Assembly: GCF_013122565.1 (NCBI RefSeq)
Contig: NZ_CP053258.1
Direction: 5' to 3' (one strand)
DNA from: Escherichia coli
GTDB lineage: Bacteria > Pseudomonadota > Gammaproteobacteria > Enterobacterales > Enterobacteriaceae
Length of the DNA stretch: 64,000 nt
Part shown: piece after piece, positions 1 through 50,045 of the stretch
How the letters are laid out: the number at the start of each line of letters is the position of its first letter
How positions within the stretch are numbered: position 1 is the first letter of the stretch
The notes under the pieces: generated by a model
Databases searched by the model: none
What the model was told of the DNA's origin: nothing
What the model saw: only the letters and a program-made list of their open reading frames with translations
Translations under genes and position numbers: made by a program

Positions 1-220
1 CGACCTGCCGCGTAATACCAAGTCAGGCTTGCGTCACGCCATCGAAGTGCTGGCCGATGTCGAAGAGATCAGCTTTAACTTCTTCCACAGCGAAGACGTG
101 GTTCGTCACCCGGTGGTGGCGCGTATCGTTAACGCTTATGAAGCCTGGGAAGAAGCAGAACAAAAACGTAAAGCGGCGCTGGCAGCAGAACGCAAGCGCG
201 AAGAACAGGAACAAAAATGA
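1..220 (+). CDS. ybeZ: PhoH-like ATPase YbeZ, C-terminal part (gene starts upstream of window)
   Basis: Open frame from window edge to TGA at 218-220; C-terminal sequence recognised; stop overlaps ybeY start (ATGA). Confidence 0.85.
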
Positions 221-684
221 GTCAGGTGATCCTCGATTTACAACTGGCATGTGAAGATAATTCCGGGTTACCGGAAGAGAGCCAGTTTCAGAAATGGCTG
301 AATGCGGTGATCCCGCAGTTTCAGGAAGAGTCGGAAGTGACGATTCGCGTGGTCGATACCGCCGAAAGCCACAGTCTGAATCTGACCTATCGCGGTAAGG
401 ATAAGCCGACCAACGTGCTCTCCTTCCCGTTTGAAGTGCCGCCTGGCATGGAGATGTCGCTACTGGGCGATCTGGTTATCTGCCGTCAGGTGGTTGAGAA
501 GGAAGCACAGGAGCAAGGCAAACCACTGGAGGCGCACTGGGCGCATATGGTGGTGCACGGCAGTCTGCATTTGTTAGGTTACGATCACATCGAAGATGAC
601 GAAGCAGAAGAAATGGAAGCCCTCGAAACAGAGATTATGCTTGCTCTGGGCTATGAGGATCCGTACATTGCCGAGAAAGAATAA
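217..684 (+). CDS. ybeY: Endoribonuclease YbeY (16S rRNA maturation), 155 aa
   Basis: ORF 217..684; zinc-binding [11 protein letters not shown] motif in translation. Confidence 0.95.
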
Positions 685-773
685 TTTGCCAGGCATTTGA
701 CTGGCAGACGTCCCCGCCGTTGGTGATTAACGACGGCGTTTTGATTAACTAACATGAGAACCCATACGACGCC

Positions 774-1652
774 ATGAGCGACGACAATTCACACAGTAGT
801 GACACGATAAGCAACAAGAAGGGATTTTTCTCCCTGTTACTCAGCCAACTTTTCCACGGTGAACCGAAAAACCGTGACGAACTGCTGGCGCTGATCCGTG
901 ATTCCGGGCAGAACGACCTTATCGACGAAGATACGCGCGATATGCTCGAAGGGGTGATGGACATCGCAGACCAACGCGTCCGCGACATCATGATCCCCCG
1001 CTCCCAGATGATTACCCTGAAACGCAACCAGACGCTGGACGAATGCCTTGATGTCATCATCGAGTCCGCCCACTCACGTTTCCCGGTGATTAGCGAAGAC
1101 AAAGATCACATTGAAGGGATTCTGATGGCGAAAGACTTGCTGCCGTTTATGCGCAGCGATGCTGAAGCCTTCAGCATGGACAAAGTGTTACGTCAGGCGG
1201 TTGTCGTTCCTGAAAGTAAGCGCGTAGACCGGATGCTGAAAGAGTTTCGCTCTCAGCGTTACCACATGGCGATCGTTATTGACGAATTCGGTGGGGTTTC
1301 CGGTCTGGTGACCATTGAAGACATCCTGGAACTGATTGTTGGTGAGATTGAAGACGAATATGACGAAGAAGATGATATCGACTTCCGTCAGCTGAGTCGT
1401 CATACCTGGACCGTGCGCGCACTGGCTTCCATTGAAGACTTCAACGAAGCGTTCGGCACCCACTTTAGCGATGAAGAAGTCGACACCATCGGTGGTCTGG
1501 TGATGCAGGCATTTGGGCATCTTCCGGCGCGTGGCGAAACCATCGACATCGACGGTTACCAGTTCAAAGTGGCGATGGCCGATAGTCGGCGTATTATTCA
1601 GGTTCATGTCAAAATCCCGGATGACTCACCCCAGCCGAAGCTGGATGAATAA
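774..1652 (+). CDS. corC: CorC/YbeX CBS-domain Mg/Co transport accessory protein, 292 aa
   Basis: ORF 774..1652; length and sequence match CorC family (CBS pair plus CorC_HlyC C-terminus). Confidence 0.9.
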
Positions 1653-1676
1653 AACCGAAACTGGATAGATAACTAC

Positions 1677-3215
1677 ATGGCTTTTGCCTCATTAATTGAA
1701 CGCCAGCGCATTCGCCTGCTGCTGGCGTTATTATTCGGTGCCTGCGGAACGCTGGCCTTCTCTCCTTACGATGTCTGGCCTGCGGCGATTATTTCGCTGA
1801 TGGGGCTTCAGGCGTTGACCTTTAACCGTCGTCCACTCCAGTCTGCCGCTATTGGCTTTTGCTGGGGATTTGGCCTCTTTGGCAGCGGTATTAACTGGGT
1901 CTATGTCAGCATCGCGACCTTTGGCGGAATGCCTGGCCCGGTTAACATCTTCCTGGTGGTGCTGCTGGCGGCGTATTTGTCGCTGTATACCGGACTGTTT
2001 GCTGGCGTGCTGTCGCGCCTGTGGCCGAAAACCACCTGGCTGCGCGTGGCGATTGCCGCCCCTGCTCTCTGGCAAGTGACCGAGTTTCTGCGCGGTTGGG
2101 TACTGACCGGCTTCCCGTGGTTACAGTTCGGCTATAGCCAGATTGATGGCCCGTTAAAAGGGCTGGCACCGATAATGGGCGTGGAAGCCATTAACTTCCT
2201 GCTGATGATGGTTAGTGGCCTGCTGGCACTGGCGTTGGTCAAACGCAACTGGCGTCCGCTGGTGGTGGCCGTCGTGCTGTTTGCCCTACCCTTCCCGCTG
2301 CGTTACATCCAATGGTTTACCCCGCAACCGGAGAAAACCATTCAGGTTTCGATGGTTCAGGGCGATATTCCGCAATCGCTGAAATGGGACGAAGGCCAGC
2401 TTCTTAATACGCTGAAGATTTACTACAACGCAACGGCACCGCTGATGGGCAAATCATCGTTGATTATCTGGCCGGAGTCGGCGATAACCGATCTGGAAAT
2501 TAATCAGCAACCGTTCCTCAAAGCACTGGACGGTGAGTTGCGCGAGAAAGGGAGCTCGCTGGTAACCGGGATTGTTGACGCGCGTCTCAATAAGCAGAAC
2601 CGCTACGATACCTACAACACCATCATCACGCTGGGTAAAGGTGCACCGTACAGCTACGAATCAGCCGATCGCTATAACAAAAACCATCTGGTGCCGTTTG
2701 GCGAGTTTGTCCCGCTCGAGTCGATTCTGCGTCCGTTAGCACCGTTCTTTGATCTGCCGATGTCGTCGTTCAGCCGTGGGCCATATATCCAGCCGCCGCT
2801 GTCGGCAAATGGTATTGAGCTTACTGCGGCTATTTGCTATGAGATCATTCTTGGCGAGCAAGTGCGTGATAACTTCCGCCCGGATACCGACTACCTGCTG
2901 ACTATCTCCAATGATGCATGGTTTGGTAAGTCTATTGGTCCATGGCAGCACTTCCAGATGGCGCGTATGCGTGCGTTGGAGCTGGCGCGCCCATTGCTGC
3001 GTAGTACCAACAACGGCATTACGGCGGTGATTGGCCCGCAGGGTGAGATTCAGGCGATGATCCCGCAGTTCACCCGCGAGGTGCTAACCACTAATGTGAC
3101 ACCGACCACCGGACTCACACCGTATGCACGTACCGGCAACTGGCCGCTGTGGGTGCTGACGGTGCTATTTGGTTTTGCCGCTGTGTTGATGAGTCTGCGT
3201 CAACGACGTAAATAA
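1677..3215 (+). CDS. lnt: Apolipoprotein N-acyltransferase, 512 aa
   Basis: ORF 1677..3215; N-terminal TM segments; C-terminal CN-hydrolase domain with E (WPESA), K ([10 protein letters not shown]), C (AAICYEI) triad. Confidence 0.95.
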
Positions 3216-3314
3216 TCCCTTCTTATCGTGCCGGAATACATCCCGTATTTCGGCACGCTCACCGGATGCGGCATCAGTGCATTATCCGGATAACAATATT
3301 CTCCTATCCAACTT

Positions 3315-3330
3315 TGGCACATCTATTGCT
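3315..3330 (+). promoter_or_regulatory. Candidate sigma-54 (-24/-12) promoter element TGGCAC-N5-TTGCT upstream of gltI
   Basis: Exact consensus-spaced GG/GC element read at 3315-3330, about 280 nt upstream of gltI ATG. Confidence 0.4.
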
Positions 3331-3611
3331 TTGTTATACAAGGCAAAGCTTGAACCAGCATCAGTACAACCCGGTTGCACCACAGCAATCCACCGGTAGC
3401 ACCAAAAGAGTGCATTTTAAGAATTTTGCTTCGGAATGGTGCGGCGCACCTCGCAAAAACAAACAATAAAACATCAATATCTTTACATTTAGCCAAACTA
3501 AATGTTACCTAACAGGCACAACACTGCACAATAAAGTTGCAGACGATAACAACACAAACACTCACAACGGGTATCCATGCGTTCTTAACGCAGAAGATAA
3601 AGGAGTTGGAT

Positions 3612-4520
3612 ATGCAATTACGTAAACCTGCCACAGCAATCCTGGCCCTGGCGCTTTCCGCAGGACTGGCACAGGCAGATGACGCCGCCCCGGTAGCGGG
3701 CAGTACGCTGGACAAAATCGCCAAAAACGGCGTGATTGTCGTCGGTCACCGTGAATCTTCAGTACCTTTCTCTTATTACGACAATCAGCAAAAAGTGGTG
3801 GGTTACTCGCAGGATTACTCCAACGCCATTGTTGAAGCAGTGAAAAAGAAACTCAACAAACCGGACTTGCAGGTAAAACTGATTCCGATTACCTCACAAA
3901 ACCGTATTCCGCTGCTGCAAAACGGCACTTTTGATTTTGAATGTGGTTCTACCACCAACAACGTCGAACGCCAAAAACAGGCGGCTTTCTCTGACACTAT
4001 TTTCGTGGTCGGTACGCGCCTGTTGACCAAAAAGGGTGGTGATATCAAAGATTTTGCCGATCTGAAAGGCAAAGCCGTAGTCGTTACTTCCGGCACTACC
4101 TCTGAAGTTTTGCTCAACAAACTGAATGAAGAGCAAAAAATGAATATGCGCATCATCAGCGCCAAAGATCACGGAGACTCTTTCCGTACCCTGGAAAGTG
4201 GTCGTGCTGTTGCCTTTATGATGGATGACGCTCTGCTGGCTGGTGAACGTGCGAAAGCGAAGAAACCAGACAACTGGGATATCGTCGGCAAGCCGCAGTC
4301 TCAGGAAGCCTACGGTTGTATGTTGCGTAAAGACGATCCGCAGTTCAAAAAGCTGATGGATGACACCATCGCGCAGGTGCAGACCTCCGGTGAAGCGGAA
4401 AAATGGTTTGATAAATGGTTCAAAAATCCAATTCCGCCGAAAAACCTGAACATGAATTTCGAACTGTCAGACGAAATGAAAGCACTGTTCAAAGAACCGA
4501 ATGACAAGGCACTGAACTAA
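3612..4520 (+). CDS. gltI: Glutamate/aspartate ABC transporter periplasmic binding protein, 302 aa
   Basis: Internal ATG at 3612 preceded by AGGAG (3601-3605); signal peptide MQLRKPATAILALALSAGLAQA; longer ORF from 3537 rejected. Confidence 0.9.
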   Translation: MQLRKPATAILALALSAGLAQADDAAPVAGSTLDKIAKNGVIVVGHRESSVPFSYYDNQQKVVGYSQDYSNAIVEAVKKKLNKPDLQVKLIPITSQNRIPLLQNGTFDFECGSTTNNVERQKQAAFSDTIFVVGTRLLTKKGGDIKDFADLKGKAVVVTSGTTSEVLLNKLNEEQKMNMRIISAKDHGDSFRTLESGRAVAFMMDDALLAGERAKAKKPDNWDIVGKPQSQEAYGCMLRKDDPQFKKLMDDTIAQVQTSGEAEKWFDKWFKNPIPPKNLNMNFELSDEMKALFKEPNDKALN

Positions 4521-4676
4521 TTACAAGAACCAGGGGCGGAAATTCCAGCCCTCTCAATTGTTACGTAGCACGGACAGACTATACGCCTGATGGTCGTTCC
4601 CCATCGGGCCTGAAAACCGCAATACGCTGGGTAACAATCTTCGAGGGTAGCAGTTAACGCTGCTACCCTCTTTTTT
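4514..4676 (+). ncRNA. sroC: SroC-like sRNA derived from gltI-gltJ spacer (3' end at intrinsic terminator)
   Basis: Position between gltI and gltJ matches known SroC locus; 3' end defined by hairpin plus T-tract; 5' end approximate. Confidence 0.5.
4643..4676 (+). terminator. Intrinsic terminator/attenuator between gltI and gltJ
   Basis: GAGGGTAGCAG-TTAAC-GCTGCTACCCTC perfect stem followed by TTTTTT, 14 nt before gltJ ATG. Confidence 0.7.
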
Positions 4677-4689
4677 CTGGAGTAGATTT

Positions 4690-5430
4690 ATGTCTATAGA
4701 CTGGAACTGGGGTATTTTTTTACAACAAGCCCCGTTCGGCAACACCACCTATCTTGGTTGGATCTGGAGTGGTTTTCAGGTGACGATCGCTTTGTCGATC
4801 TGCGCCTGGATTATCGCTTTCCTCGTCGGTTCATTTTTCGGCATTTTACGTACCGTTCCAAACCGTTTTCTCTCCGGTCTGGGTACGTTGTATGTCGAAC
4901 TGTTCCGCAACGTGCCGTTGATTGTGCAATTCTTTACCTGGTATCTGGTGATCCCGGAGCTGCTGCCGGAGAAAATCGGCATGTGGTTTAAGGCCGAGCT
5001 GGATCCCAATATTCAGTTTTTCCTTTCATCCATGCTCTGCCTTGGGCTGTTTACCGCCGCCCGTGTTTGCGAACAGGTACGCGCCGCTATTCAGTCGCTG
5101 CCGCGTGGGCAGAAGAATGCCGCGCTGGCGATGGGTCTGACGCTACCGCAGGCTTACCGCTACGTACTGCTGCCTAATGCTTATCGCGTTATCGTCCCGC
5201 CGATGACCTCAGAGATGATGAACCTGGTGAAAAACTCCGCCATCGCCTCGACCATCGGTCTGGTAGATATGGCAGCGCAGGCAGGTAAATTGCTCGACTA
5301 CTCGGCTCACGCTTGGGAGTCGTTTACCGCCATTACGCTGGCGTATGTATTGATTAACGCTTTTATCATGCTGGTGATGACGCTGGTTGAACGTAAAGTT
5401 CGCCTGCCCGGCAACATGGGGGGCAAATAA
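4690..5430 (+). CDS. gltJ: Glutamate/aspartate ABC transporter permease, 246 aa
   Basis: ORF 4690..5430; polytopic membrane protein; position after gltI. Confidence 0.9.
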
Positions 5431-6104
5431 TGTACGAGTTTGACTGGAGTTCCATTGTTCCTTCCCTGCCATATCTGCTCGACGGGCTGGTGATCACCCT
5501 GAAAATCACCGTCACGGCAGTCGTGATTGGTATTTTGTGGGGCACCATGCTGGCGGTGATGCGCTTGTCCAGCTTTGCGCCCGTAGCATGGTTTGCCAAA
5601 GCCTACGTTAACGTATTCCGCTCGATTCCTTTAGTTATGGTTTTGCTGTGGTTTTACCTGATCGTGCCGGGTTTTCTGCAAAACGTGCTGGGATTATCAC
5701 CAAAAAATGATATCCGTTTAATTTCGGCGATGGTGGCGTTTTCGATGTTTGAAGCGGCCTACTATTCAGAGATTATCCGTGCCGGTATTCAAAGTATTTC
5801 TCGTGGTCAATCGAGCGCCGCGCTGGCGTTGGGGATGACTCACTGGCAGTCGATGAAACTGATTATTCTGCCGCAGGCGTTCCGCGCGATGGTGCCGCTG
5901 CTGCTCACTCAGGGCATCGTACTGTTCCAGGATACCTCACTGGTGTATGTGTTATCTCTGGCCGATTTCTTCCGTACCGCCTCAACCATTGGTGAGCGTG
6001 ATGGTACGCAGGTTGAGATGATCCTGTTTGCCGGATTTGTTTATTTCGTTATTAGCCTTAGCGCGTCGTTGTTGGTCAGCTACTTGAAAAGAAGGACAGC
6101 ATAA
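5430..6104 (+). CDS. gltK: Glutamate/aspartate ABC transporter permease, 224 aa
   Basis: ORF 5430..6104; start overlaps gltJ stop; permease-like hydrophobic sequence. Confidence 0.9.
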
Positions 6105-6829
6105 TGATTACCCTGAAAAATGTTTCAAAATGGTATGGTCACTTTCAGGTGCTGACCGACTGCTCAACCGAAGTGAAAAAAGGCGAAGTGGTGGTGGTTT
6201 GTGGCCCGTCTGGTTCCGGCAAATCAACGCTGATTAAAACCGTCAACGGCCTCGAACCGGTGCAGCAAGGTGAAATCACCGTCGATGGTATCGTGGTTAA
6301 CGACAAGAAAACCGATCTGGCAAAGCTGCGTTCCCGCGTCGGGATGGTGTTCCAGCATTTTGAGTTGTTCCCCCATTTGTCGATTATTGAAAACCTGACT
6401 CTGGCGCAGGTTAAAGTGCTTAAACGCGATAAAGCACCCGCTCGTGAAAAAGCATTGAAATTGCTGGAGCGCGTGGGACTTTCCGCACATGCCAATAAAT
6501 TTCCGGCACAGCTTTCCGGCGGTCAGCAGCAGCGTGTGGCGATCGCTCGCGCATTATGTATGGATCCTATTGCCATGCTGTTCGACGAACCGACATCGGC
6601 GCTGGATCCGGAGATGATCAACGAAGTGCTGGACGTAATGGTCGAACTGGCGAATGAAGGAATGACCATGATGGTGGTGACCCACGAAATGGGCTTTGCC
6701 CGTAAAGTGGCGAATCGGGTGATCTTTATGGATGAGGGTAAAATTGTCGAAGACTCGCCGAAAGATGCGTTCTTCGATGATCCGAAATCGGACCGCGCAA
6801 AAGACTTCCTCGCGAAAATCCTGCATTAA
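6104..6829 (+). CDS. gltL: Glutamate/aspartate ABC transporter ATP-binding protein, 241 aa
   Basis: Walker [10 protein letters not shown] and ABC signature LSGGQQQR in translation; start overlaps gltK stop. Confidence 0.95.
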
Positions 6830-6835
6830 TCATTC

Positions 6836-6875
6836 TGGCGCGCATACCCAAGTGCGCGCCATCTCACGCTTTATC
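6836..6875 (+). terminator. Candidate terminator hairpin after gltL
   Basis: TGGCGCGCA / TGCGCGCCA 9-bp stem 7 nt after gltL stop, followed by moderately T-rich tract. Confidence 0.45.
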
Positions 6876-6946
6876 GTTTCGCTCCTCGTATCTGTTATAT
6901 CCTGGCGTTACCCTTGTCGCAAAGAAGCACACAACAAGGAGCAACA

Positions 6947-7882
6947 ATGGCACTGCCAATTCTGTTAGATTGCGACCCAGGTCATGACGATGCTATCGCA
7001 ATAGTTCTCGCCCTCGCCTCACCAGAGCTTGATGTCAAAGCAATTACGTCTTCCGCCGGAAACCAGACACCAGAAAAAACCTTACGCAATGTTCTGCGTA
7101 TGCTGACCTTGCTTAATCGCACCGATATTCCGGTAGCCGGCGGCGCGGTAAAACCGTTAATGCGTGAGTTGATTATCGCGGACAATGTGCACGGCGAAAG
7201 CGGTCTGGATGGCCCGGCATTACCGGAACCGACGTTTGCACCGCAAAACTGTACGGCGGTGGAGCTGATGGCGAAAACGCTACGTGAAAGTGCGGAACCT
7301 GTCACAATTGTGTCTACCGGACCGCAAACTAACGTTGCCTTGCTGCTCAATAGCCTCCCGGAACTGCATAGCAAAATTGCCCGTATCGTGATTATGGGCG
7401 GCGCAATGGGGCTTGGTAACTGGACGCCTGCGGCTGAATTTAATATTTACGTTGACCCGGAAGCGGCAGAAATTGTCTTCCAGTCAGGGATCCCGGTGGT
7501 GATGGCCGGTCTGGATGTTACTCACAAAGCACAAATCCACGTTGAAGACACCGAGCGTTTCCGCGCGATTGGCAACCCTGTTTCAACCATTGTTGCCGAA
7601 CTGCTGGATTTCTTCCTCGAATATCATAAAGACGAAAAATGGGGTTTTGTCGGCGCACCGCTGCATGACCCATGCACCATCGCCTGGTTGTTGAAACCGG
7701 AGTTGTTTACCACTGTTGAGCGCTGGGTTGGCGTGGAAACACAGGGGAAATATACCCAGGGTATGACGGTTGTTGATTATTATTATCTGACTGGCAATAA
7801 ACCGAATGCCACCGTAATGGTCGATGTTGATCGTCAGGGCTTTGTTGATTTACTGGCTGATCGTCTGAAATTTTACGCTTAA
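6947..7882 (+). CDS. rihA: Pyrimidine-specific ribonucleoside hydrolase, 311 aa
   Basis: ATG at 6947 with AAGGAG upstream; N-terminal DCDPGHDDA nucleoside-hydrolase aspartate motif. Confidence 0.9.
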
Positions 7883-7965
7883 CACACGTCATTGATTAAG
7901 ATCACCACGCGTTACCTGGGTGGTCTTAATCTGTTTATCTCTTTTTCTTTCAAGATATAAATGCA

Positions 7966-9636
7966 ATGGATAATGCAGAACTCGCCATTGGTATCGATCT
8001 CGGTACTACCAATAGTTTAATTGCCGTCTGGAAAGACGGTGCCGCGCAATTAATTCCAAATAAGTTCGGTGAATATTTAACACCATCCATAATTAGCATG
8101 GATGAAAATAATCATATTTTAGTCGGAAAACCGGCTGTATCACGGCGTACTTCGCATCCGGATAAAACGGCAGCGTTATTTAAACGTGCAATGGGCAGTA
8201 ATACCAACTGGCGGTTAGGCAGCGACACATTTAACGCGCCAGAACTGTCCTCTTTGGTATTACGCTCATTAAAAGAAGATGCCGAAGAATTTCTGCAACG
8301 TCCAATTAAAGATGTGGTGATCTCCGTTCCGGCTTATTTCAGCGATGAACAACGCAAGCATACCCGTTTAGCAGCGGAGTTAGCCGGGTTAAATGCGGTA
8401 CGCTTAATTAATGAACCCACAGCAGCTGCAATGGCGTATGGCCTGCATACCCAACAAAATACCCGTTCGCTGGTGTTTGATCTCGGTGGCGGCACGTTTG
8501 ACGTTACGGTGCTTGAGTACGCCACGCCGGTGATTGAAGTTCACGCCTCCGCTGGCGACAACTTTCTTGGTGGCGAAGATTTTACCCATATGCTGGTCGA
8601 TGACGTTTTAAAGCGCGCGGATGTCGCCAGGAACACGCTTAACGAGAGTGAACTGGCAGCCTTGTACGCCTGCGTAGAAGCGGCAAAATGTAGTAATCAA
8701 TCGCCAATGCACATTCGCTGGCAGTACCAGGATGAAACGCGGGAGTGCGAATTTTACGAGAACGAACTGGAAGATTTGTGGTTGCCGCTGCTCAATCGCT
8801 TGCGAGTGCCGATTGAACAGGCGTTGCGCGATGCGCGTCTGAAGCCGAGTCAAATCGACAGTCTGGTGCTGGTTGGCGGCGCGTCACAAATGCCGCTGGT
8901 GCAGCGAATCGCCGTGCGTCTGTTTGGCAAATTACCGTATCAAAGTTACGATCCGAGCACCATTGTCGCGCTGGGCGCAGCAATCCAGGCCGCCTGCCGC
9001 TTACGCAGTGAAGATATTGAAGAAGTGATCCTCACTGATATTTGCCCTTACTCGTTGGGTGTTGAAGTTAACCGTCAGGGCGTATCCGGCATTTTCTCGC
9101 CGATTATTGAACGAAACACCACAGTACCGGTGTCGCGTGTAGAAACGTACTCGACCATGCACCCGGAGCAGGATTCAATTACGGTTAACGTCTATCAGGG
9201 AGAAAACCACAAAGTTAAAAATAACATTCTGGTGGAATCCTTCGATGTGCCGTTGAAGAAAACCGGGGCTTATCAGTCGATTGATATTCGTTTTAGTTAT
9301 GATATCAACGGCTTGCTTGAAGTTGACGTACTTCTGGAAGACGGCAGCGTTAAGTCCAGAGTCATTAATCATAGCCCGGTAACATTGAGCGCGCAGCAGA
9401 TCGAAGAGAGTCGGACGCGGTTATCCGCATTGAAAATTTATCCGCGCGATATGCTCATCAATCGCACCTTTAAAGCCAAACTGGAAGAGTTGTGGGCGCG
9501 AGCGCTGGGTGACGAGCGAGAAGAGATTGGCCGGGTGATCACCGATTTTGATGCGGCGTTGCAGTCAAACGATATGGCCCGCGTCGATGAGGTCAGGCGG
9601 CGGGCGAGCGATTATTTAGCCATTGAGATCCCATAA
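7966..9636 (+). CDS. hscC: Hsp70-family chaperone HscC, 556 aa
   Basis: Hsp70 signatures IDLGTTNS and DLGGGTFD in translation; shorter than DnaK; AT-rich codon usage. Confidence 0.9.
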   Translation: MDNAELAIGIDLGTTNSLIAVWKDGAAQLIPNKFGEYLTPSIISMDENNHILVGKPAVSRRTSHPDKTAALFKRAMGSNTNWRLGSDTFNAPELSSLVLRSLKEDAEEFLQRPIKDVVISVPAYFSDEQRKHTRLAAELAGLNAVRLINEPTAAAMAYGLHTQQNTRSLVFDLGGGTFDVTVLEYATPVIEVHASAGDNFLGGEDFTHMLVDDVLKRADVARNTLNESELAALYACVEAAKCSNQSPMHIRWQYQDETRECEFYENELEDLWLPLLNRLRVPIEQALRDARLKPSQIDSLVLVGGASQMPLVQRIAVRLFGKLPYQSYDPSTIVALGAAIQAACRLRSEDIEEVILTDICPYSLGVEVNRQGVSGIFSPIIERNTTVPVSRVETYSTMHPEQDSITVNVYQGENHKVKNNILVESFDVPLKKTGAYQSIDIRFSYDINGLLEVDVLLEDGSVKSRVINHSPVTLSAQQIEESRTRLSALKIYPRDMLINRTFKAKLEELWARALGDEREEIGRVITDFDAALQSNDMARVDEVRRRASDYLAIEIP

Positions 9637-9644
9637 ACACGGCT

Positions 9645-9676
9645 GCCGGATGCGGCGTAAACGCTGCATCCGGCAT
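9645..9676. repeat. REP-like palindromic unit between convergent hscC and djlC
   Basis: GCCGGATGCGGCGTAAACGCTGCATCCGGC with GCCGGATGC/GCATCCGGC arms. Confidence 0.6.
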
Positions 9677-9694
9677 CGGCGCCAAAACACATCG

Positions 9695-11146
9695 TCAACT
9701 AAACAACATCGCGATTTTGCCGAGAGCATAACCTATCACCAGCACCGTTAAACTGATTTTGATAATGCCGGTAATGCTCTGTGGTTTTTCATCCTCATCA
9801 TTTTTTTCTTCATGGTTTTCAGGTGTTGGCTCATCGACATCTTCATCCTCCGGCTCGAGTTTCACTTTCGTCAACAGCATCCGGGTGATGATGGCCTCTA
9901 ATGGATGAGCATCTCCACCTTCCAGCCTTGTATTAAGACGGGCCAGCATCTCTTGTTTCGGAAACGCTTCAAGTACTACCTGTTCCGCTACCCGATACAA
10001 ATCCAGTAACGGTGAATCTTGCTCTGTCTCGCTACCGACTCTCGATTTCCACCACGCCCATGCTTTGCGCTTGAAAAATAACGATTCAATAAACGATTGA
10101 CCTAACGGCGATAATTTTCCGCTATGTAAAATTTCCGCCCATAACAGCCGCGTCCGGGCGCTCTCACCAGGAACATATTTCAACGGTTTACCTTGCACAT
10201 CAACCATGCTCTGCGCTTCGATAACCATCACTAACAGCGCGAAATAATCCGGGCAATGTTGTGCGCTCCACTGCAACAACAAATTATCGGCTTGTGTAGA
10301 TGGGTAACTCTCCCGGTATGCGCAGAGATCGGCAAGCAGGCTTTCCCCCTCGCCGCAGTACAAACGTTGTGCACACTGGTAATACCGGGCATCTTCGCTT
10401 TCTGGTTCTTCCATTTGCCACTGTTGGGCAACAGGAATGAGTTCCGCCATACCTGTTTGCACCGAGCTGTACCAGCGCAACAGTTTGCGATGTAACTTTG
10501 CATCATCAGGAATGAACCACGGACCTTCCATCGCCAAAAACGCAGTGACATAGTCAGGATGGTAACGGCAGCAACGTTCCAGCGCGAAGTAATACTCAAC
10601 AGTCTGGTTCTGCAACGCAACAGGATATTCCAGAAGGCTAAGGAAATCGAAACAATCACCAGCCTGAATGGCCTCAAGAAAAGCCTCCCTTTCTTCCTCA
10701 TCCATTCCTTCGCTGTCATTAAACGAATGCCAGTTCAAACGCTCTGCCAGCAAAGAAGCACAATTTAATGAAAGATATCGCGCTTCTATAGCGATTGCAC
10801 ACAGCGGCCAGCGTAATTGATCGACATCCTCCATGTTCCAGGTATTTAATTGCTGAATAAATTTCTGCCAGGCGGAGGGCTGAAAACGATCACTTTCTGA
10901 ATCCAGTAATGCCCTGAATGCACATAGTATTTCATGTTCAGCGGCAGCATCTTTTTCTTCATCATCTGCTTCCTCGACAGGATTTACCGCCAATCGCAAG
11001 GCCTCTTCATAGGCCTGGCGTAATGCTTTAAACCCCTGCGGATCGGTTTCGGGATGACACAACGGTAAGCGAGCAAGATAAGCCTGGCGGATAATGTCTA
11101 TTTGCGTCGTGCTTTCAATTTCGAGGATTTGCCAACATGTTTTCAT
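9695..11146 (-). CDS. djlC: J-domain co-chaperone DjlC (HscC partner), 483 aa, C-terminal membrane anchor
   Basis: N-terminal J-like domain (…[18 protein letters not shown]…); hydrophobic C-terminal tail; overlaps ybeU stop by 4 nt. Confidence 0.85.
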
Positions 11147-11850
11147 AGGTCGCTCACATCCTTAAGCGTTACCGGGCATTCAGGCTGGACAGTCAATGGC
11201 TGCCAGGGAAGCGTGGCATAGAAACGATCGCTTCCCGCTGCCAGCTCTTCGAACATCCGACTCCCGGCGCTATCGTATTTGTACAGGGTTAGCGCCTCGC
11301 GTAACGAAGCGTTGTCTTCGCATTGAGAAGATTGCCAGTAGAGACGCCCTAGTGAATAGGCAGAAAAATAGTGCATCCAGCTGTGATAGTAATGGTGTGC
11401 TCGGACGTAGACGCGCGATTGCAGCCATAAACTCTCGTCTTCCGTCAGCCACTTGTTGAGCACACCGACCCGTGACAGAAACCCCATTCGAACATAATCC
11501 CAGGCTTTGATTCCACCTTCTCCACAGCACATAGCGGTTTGGGCAACGAATTGGGTATAAATCAACCCTCTCTCCGAGCCACCAGCAATTAATGCTTTCC
11601 ACTCTTCAGGGGAAGAGCGATGCCATGTCAGATATAAGCCAGCTAAATCATTAGCATGACCATCATCAGTCATCTGATAAATAGTCTGAATTAAATCATC
11701 ACGATTATTTATTCCCCAGGATGATGAGAGATCGAATTCTTTTATCCCAGTATACATTTTCGGCGAGTCATGCGCGGGTTTGCAACCCTGATTAAGTATT
11801 TCCATTGGCGCAGAAAGCGCAAAAAGAAGATATTGTTCTTCCTTATTCAT
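11143..11850 (-). CDS. ybeU: DUF1266-family protein YbeU, 235 aa
   Basis: ORF 11143..11850; paralogous to ybeR in this window; translationally coupled to djlC. Confidence 0.85.
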
Positions 11851-11951
11851 TTGTTAATAATCCCTTAAGTGCATTAACTGACTACTTTTTTATTATTGAT
11901 GAGTATAAACTTGACGCTTTCAAAATAAAAAGAAAATCGAATCATTCACAG

Positions 11952-12506
11952 ATGAATAAAAAATTAATGTATATATTCGCAATATTTATAGTTGCAGCAA
12001 TTACCTGTATTAGCCAACCCAAGAAAACGACGTTGCGTGATAAAGCCATGGCGAATTATGCCTTTGATTATTTAAGCTCACCAGGCAGTCTTCCATTCAC
12101 CACGGCAGCCACGGAGCTTTCCGCGATTCATGGTCACTCAACGTCGCAATATCGCCTTGGCGAATTTTATCTTCATGGTAGCGACGGGAAACCACTGGAT
12201 TATACACAGGCGAGATACTGGTATGAGCAATCAGCAGAACAGGAAAATCCACGCGCGCAAAGTAAACTGGGGTGGATCTACCTCAAAGGTCTGGGGGTCA
12301 AACCCGACACCCGTAAAGCAATTCTCTGGTATAAGGAAGCAGCTGAACAAGGGTATGCTCATGCTCAATATACTTTAGGTTTGATCTACAGAAATGGCTC
12401 AGGTATTAATGTTAACCATTATGAATCTCAAAAATGGTTAAAACTGGCCGCCAAACAACATTACAAAAATGCGGAAAGATTACTTGCCGGGCTTCCCGCA
12501 CATTAA
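11952..12506 (+). CDS. ybeT: Sel1-repeat protein YbeT, 184 aa
   Basis: Internal ATG at 11952 (MNKKLMYIF..., signal/TM-like N-terminus); Sel1-type repeats; longer ORF from 11805 rejected. Confidence 0.75.
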
Positions 12507-33811: not shown

Positions 33812-33840
33812 AAAAAAAACCCGCTGATTAAGCGGGTTTT
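33812..33840. terminator. Bidirectional intrinsic terminator between convergent crcB and cspE
   Basis: A8-CCCGCT-GATTA-AGCGGG-T4; reads as hairpin plus T-run on both strands. Confidence 0.7.
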
Positions 33841-33859
33841 GAATTCTTGCTGACGTATC

Positions 33860-34069
33860 TTACAGAGCGATTACGTTTGCAGCAGAAGGGCCTTTGGCAC
33901 CGTTAGTGATTTCGAACTCTACACGCTGACCTTCAGCAAGAGTTTTAAAACCATTAGTCTGGATTGCAGAGAAGTGTACGAACACGTCTTTGCTGCCGTC
34001 TTCCGGAGTAATGAAACCGAATCCTTTGGACTCATTAAACCACTTAACGTTACCTTTAATCTTAGACAT
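33860..34069 (-). CDS. cspE: Cold-shock-domain protein CspE, 69 aa
   Basis: Start at internal ATG ([20 protein letters not shown]…); RNP1 motif GFGFI. Confidence 0.95.
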
Positions 34070-34243
34070 CAAAATTACCTTTACATGAAAAATAGACACA
34101 AATGCTGTGTCGGTTACCAGTACACCAATTGTGGTACGCTTTGTCCAGTGCAACTTTACTAAAAAGTGATAAAAGTCGCGTTATTTTTGATGTTAATTAT
34201 TTTACTCATTGATTTTAAAGAGTTTACTAAAATTTCATTTGTC

Positions 34244-46247: not shown

Positions 46248-46278
46248 TACGTTCGCCAAACGCTGAATAAATCATCAC

Positions 46279-46312
46279 GCCCGCCAGGTAAGCCCACCTG
46301 GCGGGCTTTTTT
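46279..46312 (+). terminator. Strong intrinsic terminator after citT
   Basis: GCCCGCCAGG-N8-CCTGGCGGGC perfect 10-bp stem followed by TTTTTT. Confidence 0.75.
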
Positions 46313-47167: not shown

Positions 47168-47396
47168 TCATCTGATTTACAAAACACGCTAATTCGTCTC
47201 CCATAAACCATGACGATTAAGATTTATACATAATGCGCTGCATTGAGGAATTCCCTGAATGTGACGCAAATCACTTCAAAGAGTGAGCAACAGTCAGTAT
47301 CATCATGTGAGTTAAACCCTCGCCGCCTGACGGTGAGGGTTTTCTTTTGGGTATGTTTATCTGCGACACTCGCAGTACCGACGACATGGAGTAAAA

Positions 47397-49925: not shown

Positions 49926-49944
49926 TTGCCAGAATAAGTATCCC

Positions 49945-49980
49945 GCCCTGCCCGGAGTCATCCCGGCAGGGCTTTTTATT
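49945..49980 (+). terminator. Intrinsic terminator after uspG
   Basis: GCCCTGCCCGG…CCCGGCAGGGC stem (one mismatch) followed by TTTTTATT. Confidence 0.65.
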
Positions 49981-50045
49981 GCCATAAAAAAGCCGCCAGG
50001 TTTGACCCCGGCGGCTAAACAATTGCAGGTGAATCTTACTTCTTC

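Follow-up and report, generated by a model that had tools for sequence, protein, structure and literature searches.

The window, as we call the whole stretch of 64,000 nt analysed here, carries the genes of the gltIJKL operon, with gltI upstream of the permease and ATPase genes gltJ, gltK and gltL (Table 1). The original prediction had placed a strong intrinsic terminator in the spacer between gltI and gltJ, coinciding with the locus of the small RNA (sRNA) SroC. Its naming of the flanking genes agrees with the RefSeq annotation of near-identical E. coli DNA.

Comparison with E. coli K-12 showed 22 differences in gltI, 19 of them at third codon positions. Likewise, the differences in gltJ, gltK, gltL and rihA are overwhelmingly third-position changes, and few aa are altered in any of these genes. 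For positions 1-12000 of the window the best identity among 5,426 complete E. coli genomes was 97.9%, and the identity to K-12 was 97.6%. At the corresponding loci, E. albertii, E. whittamii and two further Escherichia species (91.7-95.5%) are more distant than E. coli. The window seems to derive from a lineage of the E. coli group without close representatives among complete genomes. The lnt-gltI spacer (3216-3611) is an uninterrupted 396 nt; K-12 MG1655 carries IS5D upstream of gltI (record 687851-689045), which the window lacks.

Table 1. Features of the gltI-gltJ region, in positions of the window
Feature	Position	Strand	Basis or description
GcvB R1-seed target, C/A-rich, in the gltI 5' UTR	3536-3569	+	intact; other half of the published feed-forward circuit
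gltI	3612-4520	+	RefSeq annotation of 97.6-99.8% identical E. coli DNA
SroC small RNA, 163 nt	4516-4678	+	Rfam RF00369; 162/163 nt identical to K-12 b4763
SL1, 5' stem-loop (GGGGCGGA...UCCAGCCCU)	4533-4552	+	MFE and centroid fold; Rfam consensus structure
Rare G-to-A variant, SroC position 41 (G41A)	4556	+	sole difference from K-12 in 221 nt
SL2, long irregular helix with both GcvB contact sites	4557-4638	+	MFE fold, RNAalifold
BS2 (GGACAGAC)	4572-4579	+	SroC 57-64; exact 8-nt complement of GcvB nt 156-163 (R3/SL4)
BS1 (UCGUUCC)	4594-4600	+	SroC 79-85; exact 7-nt complement of GcvB nt 13-19 (SL1)
Rho-independent terminator	4643-4676	+	12-bp stem, UAAC loop, U6 tract
gltJ Shine-Dalgarno sequence GGAG	4679-4682	+	7 nt before ATG, directly after the terminator
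gltJ	4690-5430	+	ORF, RefSeq; permease and ATPase genes (gltJKL, 4690-6829)
gltK	5430-6104	+	ORF, RefSeq
gltL	6104-6829	+	ORF, RefSeq

Identity of the spacer RNA

A scan of the window with Rfam models at their gathering thresholds revealed SroC (RF00369) in the spacer, with 168.4 bits against a gathering score of 45 (E = 2.6e-35) and a match to the complete model (1-163 of 163). The ncRNA sroC (b4763) of K-12 MG1655 lies at 686681-686843, overlaps gltI by 5 nt and ends 11 nt before gltJ. This is exactly the layout of the window, where the 5' end of SroC covers the last 5 nt of gltI (ACTAA) and gltJ starts at 4690. The assignment of the spacer to the SroC locus, made in the original prediction from position, is therefore borne out by the Rfam match and by the K-12 gene at the same relative coordinates, and the boundaries proposed there (4514-4676) deviate by no more than 2 nt at either end from those of Rfam and K-12. 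Using a 601-nt query around the spacer, we found the locus in 5,421 of the 5,426 complete E. coli genomes, in each case flanked by genes annotated gltI and gltJ.

Within SroC a single one of the 163 positions differs from K-12, compared with 7.6% at third codon positions of the neighbouring genes (P = 3.7e-5). This deficit of substitutions implies that the spacer is under purifying selection.

Rfam score, location, GcvB sites and covariation all place the RNA in the SroC family (RF00369), and the locus is the already known sroC (b4763; Vogel et al. 2003; Miyakoshi, Chao & Vogel 2015, PMC4474525) of an E. coli-group genome. The window shares with the described SroC the position in the gltI-gltJ spacer, the 5' end 5 nt inside gltI, the length of 163 nt, the fold into SL1, SL2 and terminator, both GcvB sites with their spacing, and a terminator just upstream of the gltJ Shine-Dalgarno sequence. 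The one substitution that distinguishes it from K-12 SroC, G41A, removes a G-C pair at the base of SL2.

The same window holds matches to two other Rfam families. The Enterobacteria rnk leader (RF01771) was detected in full length at 47243-47351 (+; 124.9 bits), including its own terminator-like hairpin. A match to the cspA thermoregulator (RF01766; 126.1 bits) lies at 33812-34170 (-), which, from its position on the K-12 map, probably belongs to the mRNA of a cspA paralogue, for example cspE.

The terminator and its conservation

The stem arms GAGGGTAGCAG (4643-4653) and CTGCTACCCTC (4660-4670) are perfectly complementary and form 11 Watson-Crick pairs. They enclose the loop TTAACG, whose outer bases T4654 and G4659 can make a twelfth pair (U·G), leaving a UAAC tetraloop. 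A run of six T (4671-4676) follows directly 3' of the stem and is itself followed by CT. Its last T lies 14 nt upstream of the A of the gltJ ATG, with 13 bases between them, so that the perfect 11-bp stem and the T6 tract 14 nt before gltJ had been read correctly from the sequence. This arrangement, a G+C-rich stem-loop with a U-tract next to it on the transcribed strand, is that of an intrinsic terminator. On the minus strand an A-run precedes the hairpin and no T-run follows it, and hence termination is possible in the plus direction only.

In a terminator scan of 3200-7200 the hairpin ranked top (12 pairs, 7 of them G-C). Its RNA fold reached -22.7 kcal/mol, compared with -6.2 ± 2.2 kcal/mol for dinucleotide shuffles (z = -7.5), and none of 200 shuffles equalled it. 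Among 91 candidates of hairpin plus T5 on both strands of the 64-kb window it is the third-strongest. Another very strong site lies at about 46267-46312 (+; -24.0 kcal/mol, T-run from 46307). Two more were found at about 49933-49995, with -22.0 (+) and -19.9 (-) kcal/mol and T-runs from 49973 and 49991; these two T-runs are on opposite strands and 18 nt apart.

To compare the locus across species we collected orthologues by an exact-pattern scan with one genome per species, which yielded 56 loci and an alignment of 55 distinct sequences. They represent about 12 genera (Citrobacter, Enterobacter, Escherichia, Kluyvera, Klebsiella, Raoultella, Kosakonia, Salmonella, Pluralibacter, Phytobacter, Huaxiibacter and Lelliottia). 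The collecting pattern fixes BS1 and most of BS2, so the conservation of these two sites in the orthologue set is circular and is not used as evidence. The terminator core GGGTAGC/GCTACCC with a tract of T6-T9 is kept in all 55 sequences retaining the region, 8-14 nt before the gltJ ATG. The GGAG motif is also kept in the aligned orthologues, as judged by eye, and is moved by 1-2 nt in the Klebsiella/Raoultella group. As the core is invariant, it shows no compensatory substitutions and gives no covariation signal. In Escherichia and Kluyvera, differing insertions lengthen the stem with pairing fully kept. The comparative support for the terminator consists of its conservation and these stem-lengthening insertions.

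The strength of the hairpin differs between genera. The Escherichia terminator has 12 bp (-21.6 kcal/mol, CUC+U6), whereas the stem of Salmonella, Citrobacter, Enterobacter, Klebsiella/Raoultella and Kosakonia measures 7 bp and encloses a loop of 3 nt (-10.4 kcal/mol, U8). The Escherichia hairpin thus has about double the stability of the form present in Salmonella and most of the other genera. Most experiments on SroC concern the Salmonella RNA with its 7-bp stem and U8 tract; the leakiness described there belongs to a far weaker hairpin and therefore need not transfer quantitatively to Escherichia. The doubled stability specific to Escherichia could result in a gltI:gltJKL ratio and a SroC output other than those of Salmonella.

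SroC fold, GcvB contact sites and the variant at 4556

The minimum free energy of the whole SroC is -62.7 kcal/mol (z = -5.7). The RNAalifold structure of the 55 distinct sequences contains 30 pairs, and 97.1% of its cells are paired. Compensatory double changes were found at 11 pairs and are concentrated in SL2. Covariation in SL2 was 0.273 compared with 0.119 in shuffles, none of 500 being as high, and slid controls were about 5-fold lower (at most 0.054). SL1 was missed by RNAalifold, since MAFFT aligned this stem-loop out of register; by eye, lineage-specific changes in the 55-sequence alignment keep a hairpin. The secondary structure of SroC is conserved, and its support by covariation is strong.

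The Rfam consensus also draws a helix between SroC positions 37-41 and 127-131, which overlaps the 5' arm of the terminator. In the ViennaRNA ensemble of the complete SroC this helix has a probability of 0.000 with either allele, and RNAalifold, unlike the Rfam consensus, pairs G41 with C124. The Rfam-like pairing was seen only in folds of truncated nascent RNA. We do not accept this helix as an established antiterminator. Two tiny ORFs in SroC (one of 10 codons from 4558 and one of 7 codons from 4590) were dismissed, since they lack a Shine-Dalgarno sequence and lie within helices.

An exact-complementarity search against K-12 gcvB identified both GcvB contact sites listed in Table 1. They are spaced by 14 nt, and BS1 forms the apical loop of SL2, unpaired in the predicted fold. 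In the published description SroC likewise contacts GcvB through two sites, each 7 or 8 nt long and separated by 14 nt, and footprints were obtained at GcvB G14 and G18 (BS1) and at G156 and an internal bulge of SroC (BS2) (PMC4474525). The leader of gltI is itself a known GcvB target (PMC4474525). RNAduplex of 3536-3569 with GcvB nt 63-92 gave -35.8 kcal/mol, against -18.2 ± 3.3 kcal/mol for shuffles, and 0.1% of the shuffles equalled it. When RNAduplex paired full-length GcvB with complete SroC or with the 150-nt gltI leader, the duplexes were unrealistically long and indistinguishable from shuffles; we replaced them by the exact-complementarity search and the duplex restricted to GcvB R1.

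The A allele at 4556 is rare. With a 55-nt query and all 28-mer seeds covering the variant it was detected in 3 of the 5,426 complete E. coli genomes (strains 14EC033, 100416 and CUWW06). The other 54 of the 55 aligned sequences, from about 12 genera, have a G paired with C at this position (alignment columns 54 and 141). G41A breaks G41-C124, the pair closing SL2, at a cost of 3.6 kcal/mol (-66.3 to -62.7 kcal/mol), and leaves the pair probabilities of the terminator unchanged at about 1.0. The position is outside the GcvB contact sites and belongs to a pair only a few bases from the 5' arm of the terminator. In nascent folds preceding the 3' arm of the terminator, CUC(G) pairs with (C)GAG, which later becomes the base of the terminator stem, and G41A weakens this competing pairing by 4 kcal/mol. 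Through this weakened competitor, the variant could alter the efficiency of termination, the yield of SroC or its stability. We give only a small probability to G41A being functional in this lineage. Conserved nucleotides of SroC that do not contact GcvB have been suggested to regulate termination in the gltI-gltJ spacer (PMC4474525), and an effect of G41A, if true, would bear on that suggestion.

Expression of the operon and origin of SroC

In Salmonella a leaky Rho-independent terminator gives rise to a monocistronic gltI mRNA besides the full-length gltIJKL transcript (PMC4474525; PMC9438474). SroC bears a monophosphate at its 5' end and lacks a transcription start site; its 3' end is attributed to the conserved Rho-independent terminator (PMC4474525). 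RNase E is needed in vivo and, together with Hfq, is sufficient in vitro to process a 5'-monophosphorylated precursor to the mature 5' end; the evidence for processing covers Salmonella and E. coli (PMC4474525). Pairing with SroC triggers decay of GcvB by RNase E, and the half-life of GcvB exceeds 15 min in the absence of SroC but is 1.7 min in its presence; the E. coli homologues of SroC and GcvB act alike (PMC4474525). In RIL-seq data of stationary-phase E. coli, GcvB-SroC chimeras make up to about 70% of the GcvB reads (PMC9299463). A review describes SroC as 163 nt long and lists MgrR and fliE/flhBAE as further targets (PMC9438474). An E. coli 3'-end mapping (Term-seq) paper (PMC7815308) names neither sroC nor gltI nor gltJ in its main text.

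By analogy with this work, the hairpin in the window is taken to be the 3' end of both SroC and a monocistronic gltI mRNA, with partial termination as described in Salmonella. Two further elements of the original prediction, attenuated read-through into gltJKL and a hairpin that defines the 3' end of an mRNA-derived sRNA, correspond to the published leaky terminator with its two transcripts and to the published 3' end of SroC; RNase E processing, as the source of the 5' end, was not specified in it. The description of the terminator as strong holds for the thermodynamics of the hairpin, but not for its function, which the literature describes as leaky. A scan of the plus strand within 3200-7200 revealed no promoter-like (sigma-70-like) site. 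Because gltJKL lies downstream of the terminator and has no promoter-like site of its own, the terminator must be leaky. ORFs, annotation and promoter scan together suggest that gltJKL would be expressed through terminator read-through only.

Transcription from a single gltI promoter would proceed through gltI up to the hairpin and U-tract, where part of the polymerases would stop at this leaky Rho-independent site and the remainder would enter gltJKL. The leaky stop would leave the binding protein in excess over the membrane components. RNase E, guided by Hfq and dependent on a 5' monophosphate, would degrade the terminated gltI mRNA from its 5' end, and the tightly folded SroC would remain as a stable product. 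Bound to Hfq, SroC would pair through BS2 and BS1 with two distant regions of GcvB and lead to decay of GcvB by RNase E. This in turn would relieve many GcvB-repressed mRNAs of amino-acid transport and metabolism, including the parental gltI with its site at 3536-3569. That the window holds an sroC locus with a leaky internal terminator, a processed SroC and GcvB sponging is in our judgement almost certain. Its sequence-based support comprises the hairpin, the Rfam match and K-12 identity, synteny, both pairing sites, conservation and covariation, while the steps of termination, RNase E/Hfq processing and decay are derived from the literature. None of our analyses yielded evidence contradicting this explanation.

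As an alternative, the hairpin may act mainly as a 3' stabiliser against 3'-5' exonucleases, as REP elements do in other ABC-transporter operons such as malE-malF, with the excess of gltI arising from processing of the full-length transcript. Binding-protein genes are often differentially expressed by means of stabilisers, a general mechanism considered in PMC4474525, and the hairpin is very stable. A pure stabiliser would, however, have no need of the T6-T9 tract that directly follows the stem in 55 of 55 sequences, and PMC4474525 sets gltI against the stabiliser mechanism and explains the short mRNA by leaky Rho-independent termination. We regard a mainly stabilising role as very unlikely. 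The two roles are nevertheless compatible, as the hairpin, once formed, also protects the 3' end of SroC. REP stabilisers and attenuating terminators of ABC-transporter operons likewise lead to more binding-protein mRNA than membrane-component mRNA; the gltI-gltJ element differs in that it is a true hairpin with a U-tract and the released fragment acts in trans.

Still less probable is that SroC is an independent sRNA gene, transcribed without processing from a promoter of its own in the end of gltI. The sRNAs DapZ and MicL are made in this way from 3' UTRs (PMC4474525), but our promoter scan is negative on the plus strand throughout 3200-7200, and the 5'-monophosphate end, the missing transcription start site and the dependence on RNase E in vivo and in vitro (PMC4474525) argue against it for SroC. 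A chance inverted repeat without function is refuted by the conservation of position and core in about 12 genera, together with the z-score against shuffles and the deficit of substitutions in the spacer.

SroC as a product of a leaky operon-internal terminator is the preferred explanation. The processed sRNAs SdhX, NarS, MalH and OppZ (PMC9438474), which stem from mRNA 3' ends or the interior of operons, are likewise released by RNase E, bind Hfq and carry the terminator of their parental mRNA. SroC differs from them in that its terminator is internal to the operon and its main target is an sRNA, which it sponges, rather than an mRNA.

The SroC terminator and the GcvB-sponge mechanism are already known (PMC4474525; PMC9438474), and the finding amounts to recognising once more a textbook terminator within an operon, one that also serves as the 3' end of a regulatory sponge RNA. 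Its value is that of a positive control, showing that a reading of raw sequence recovers such elements within 2 nt. Possible further value lies only in the natural variant G41A and in the genus-level difference in terminator strength, either of which could serve to test whether termination between gltI and gltJ is tuned or regulated.
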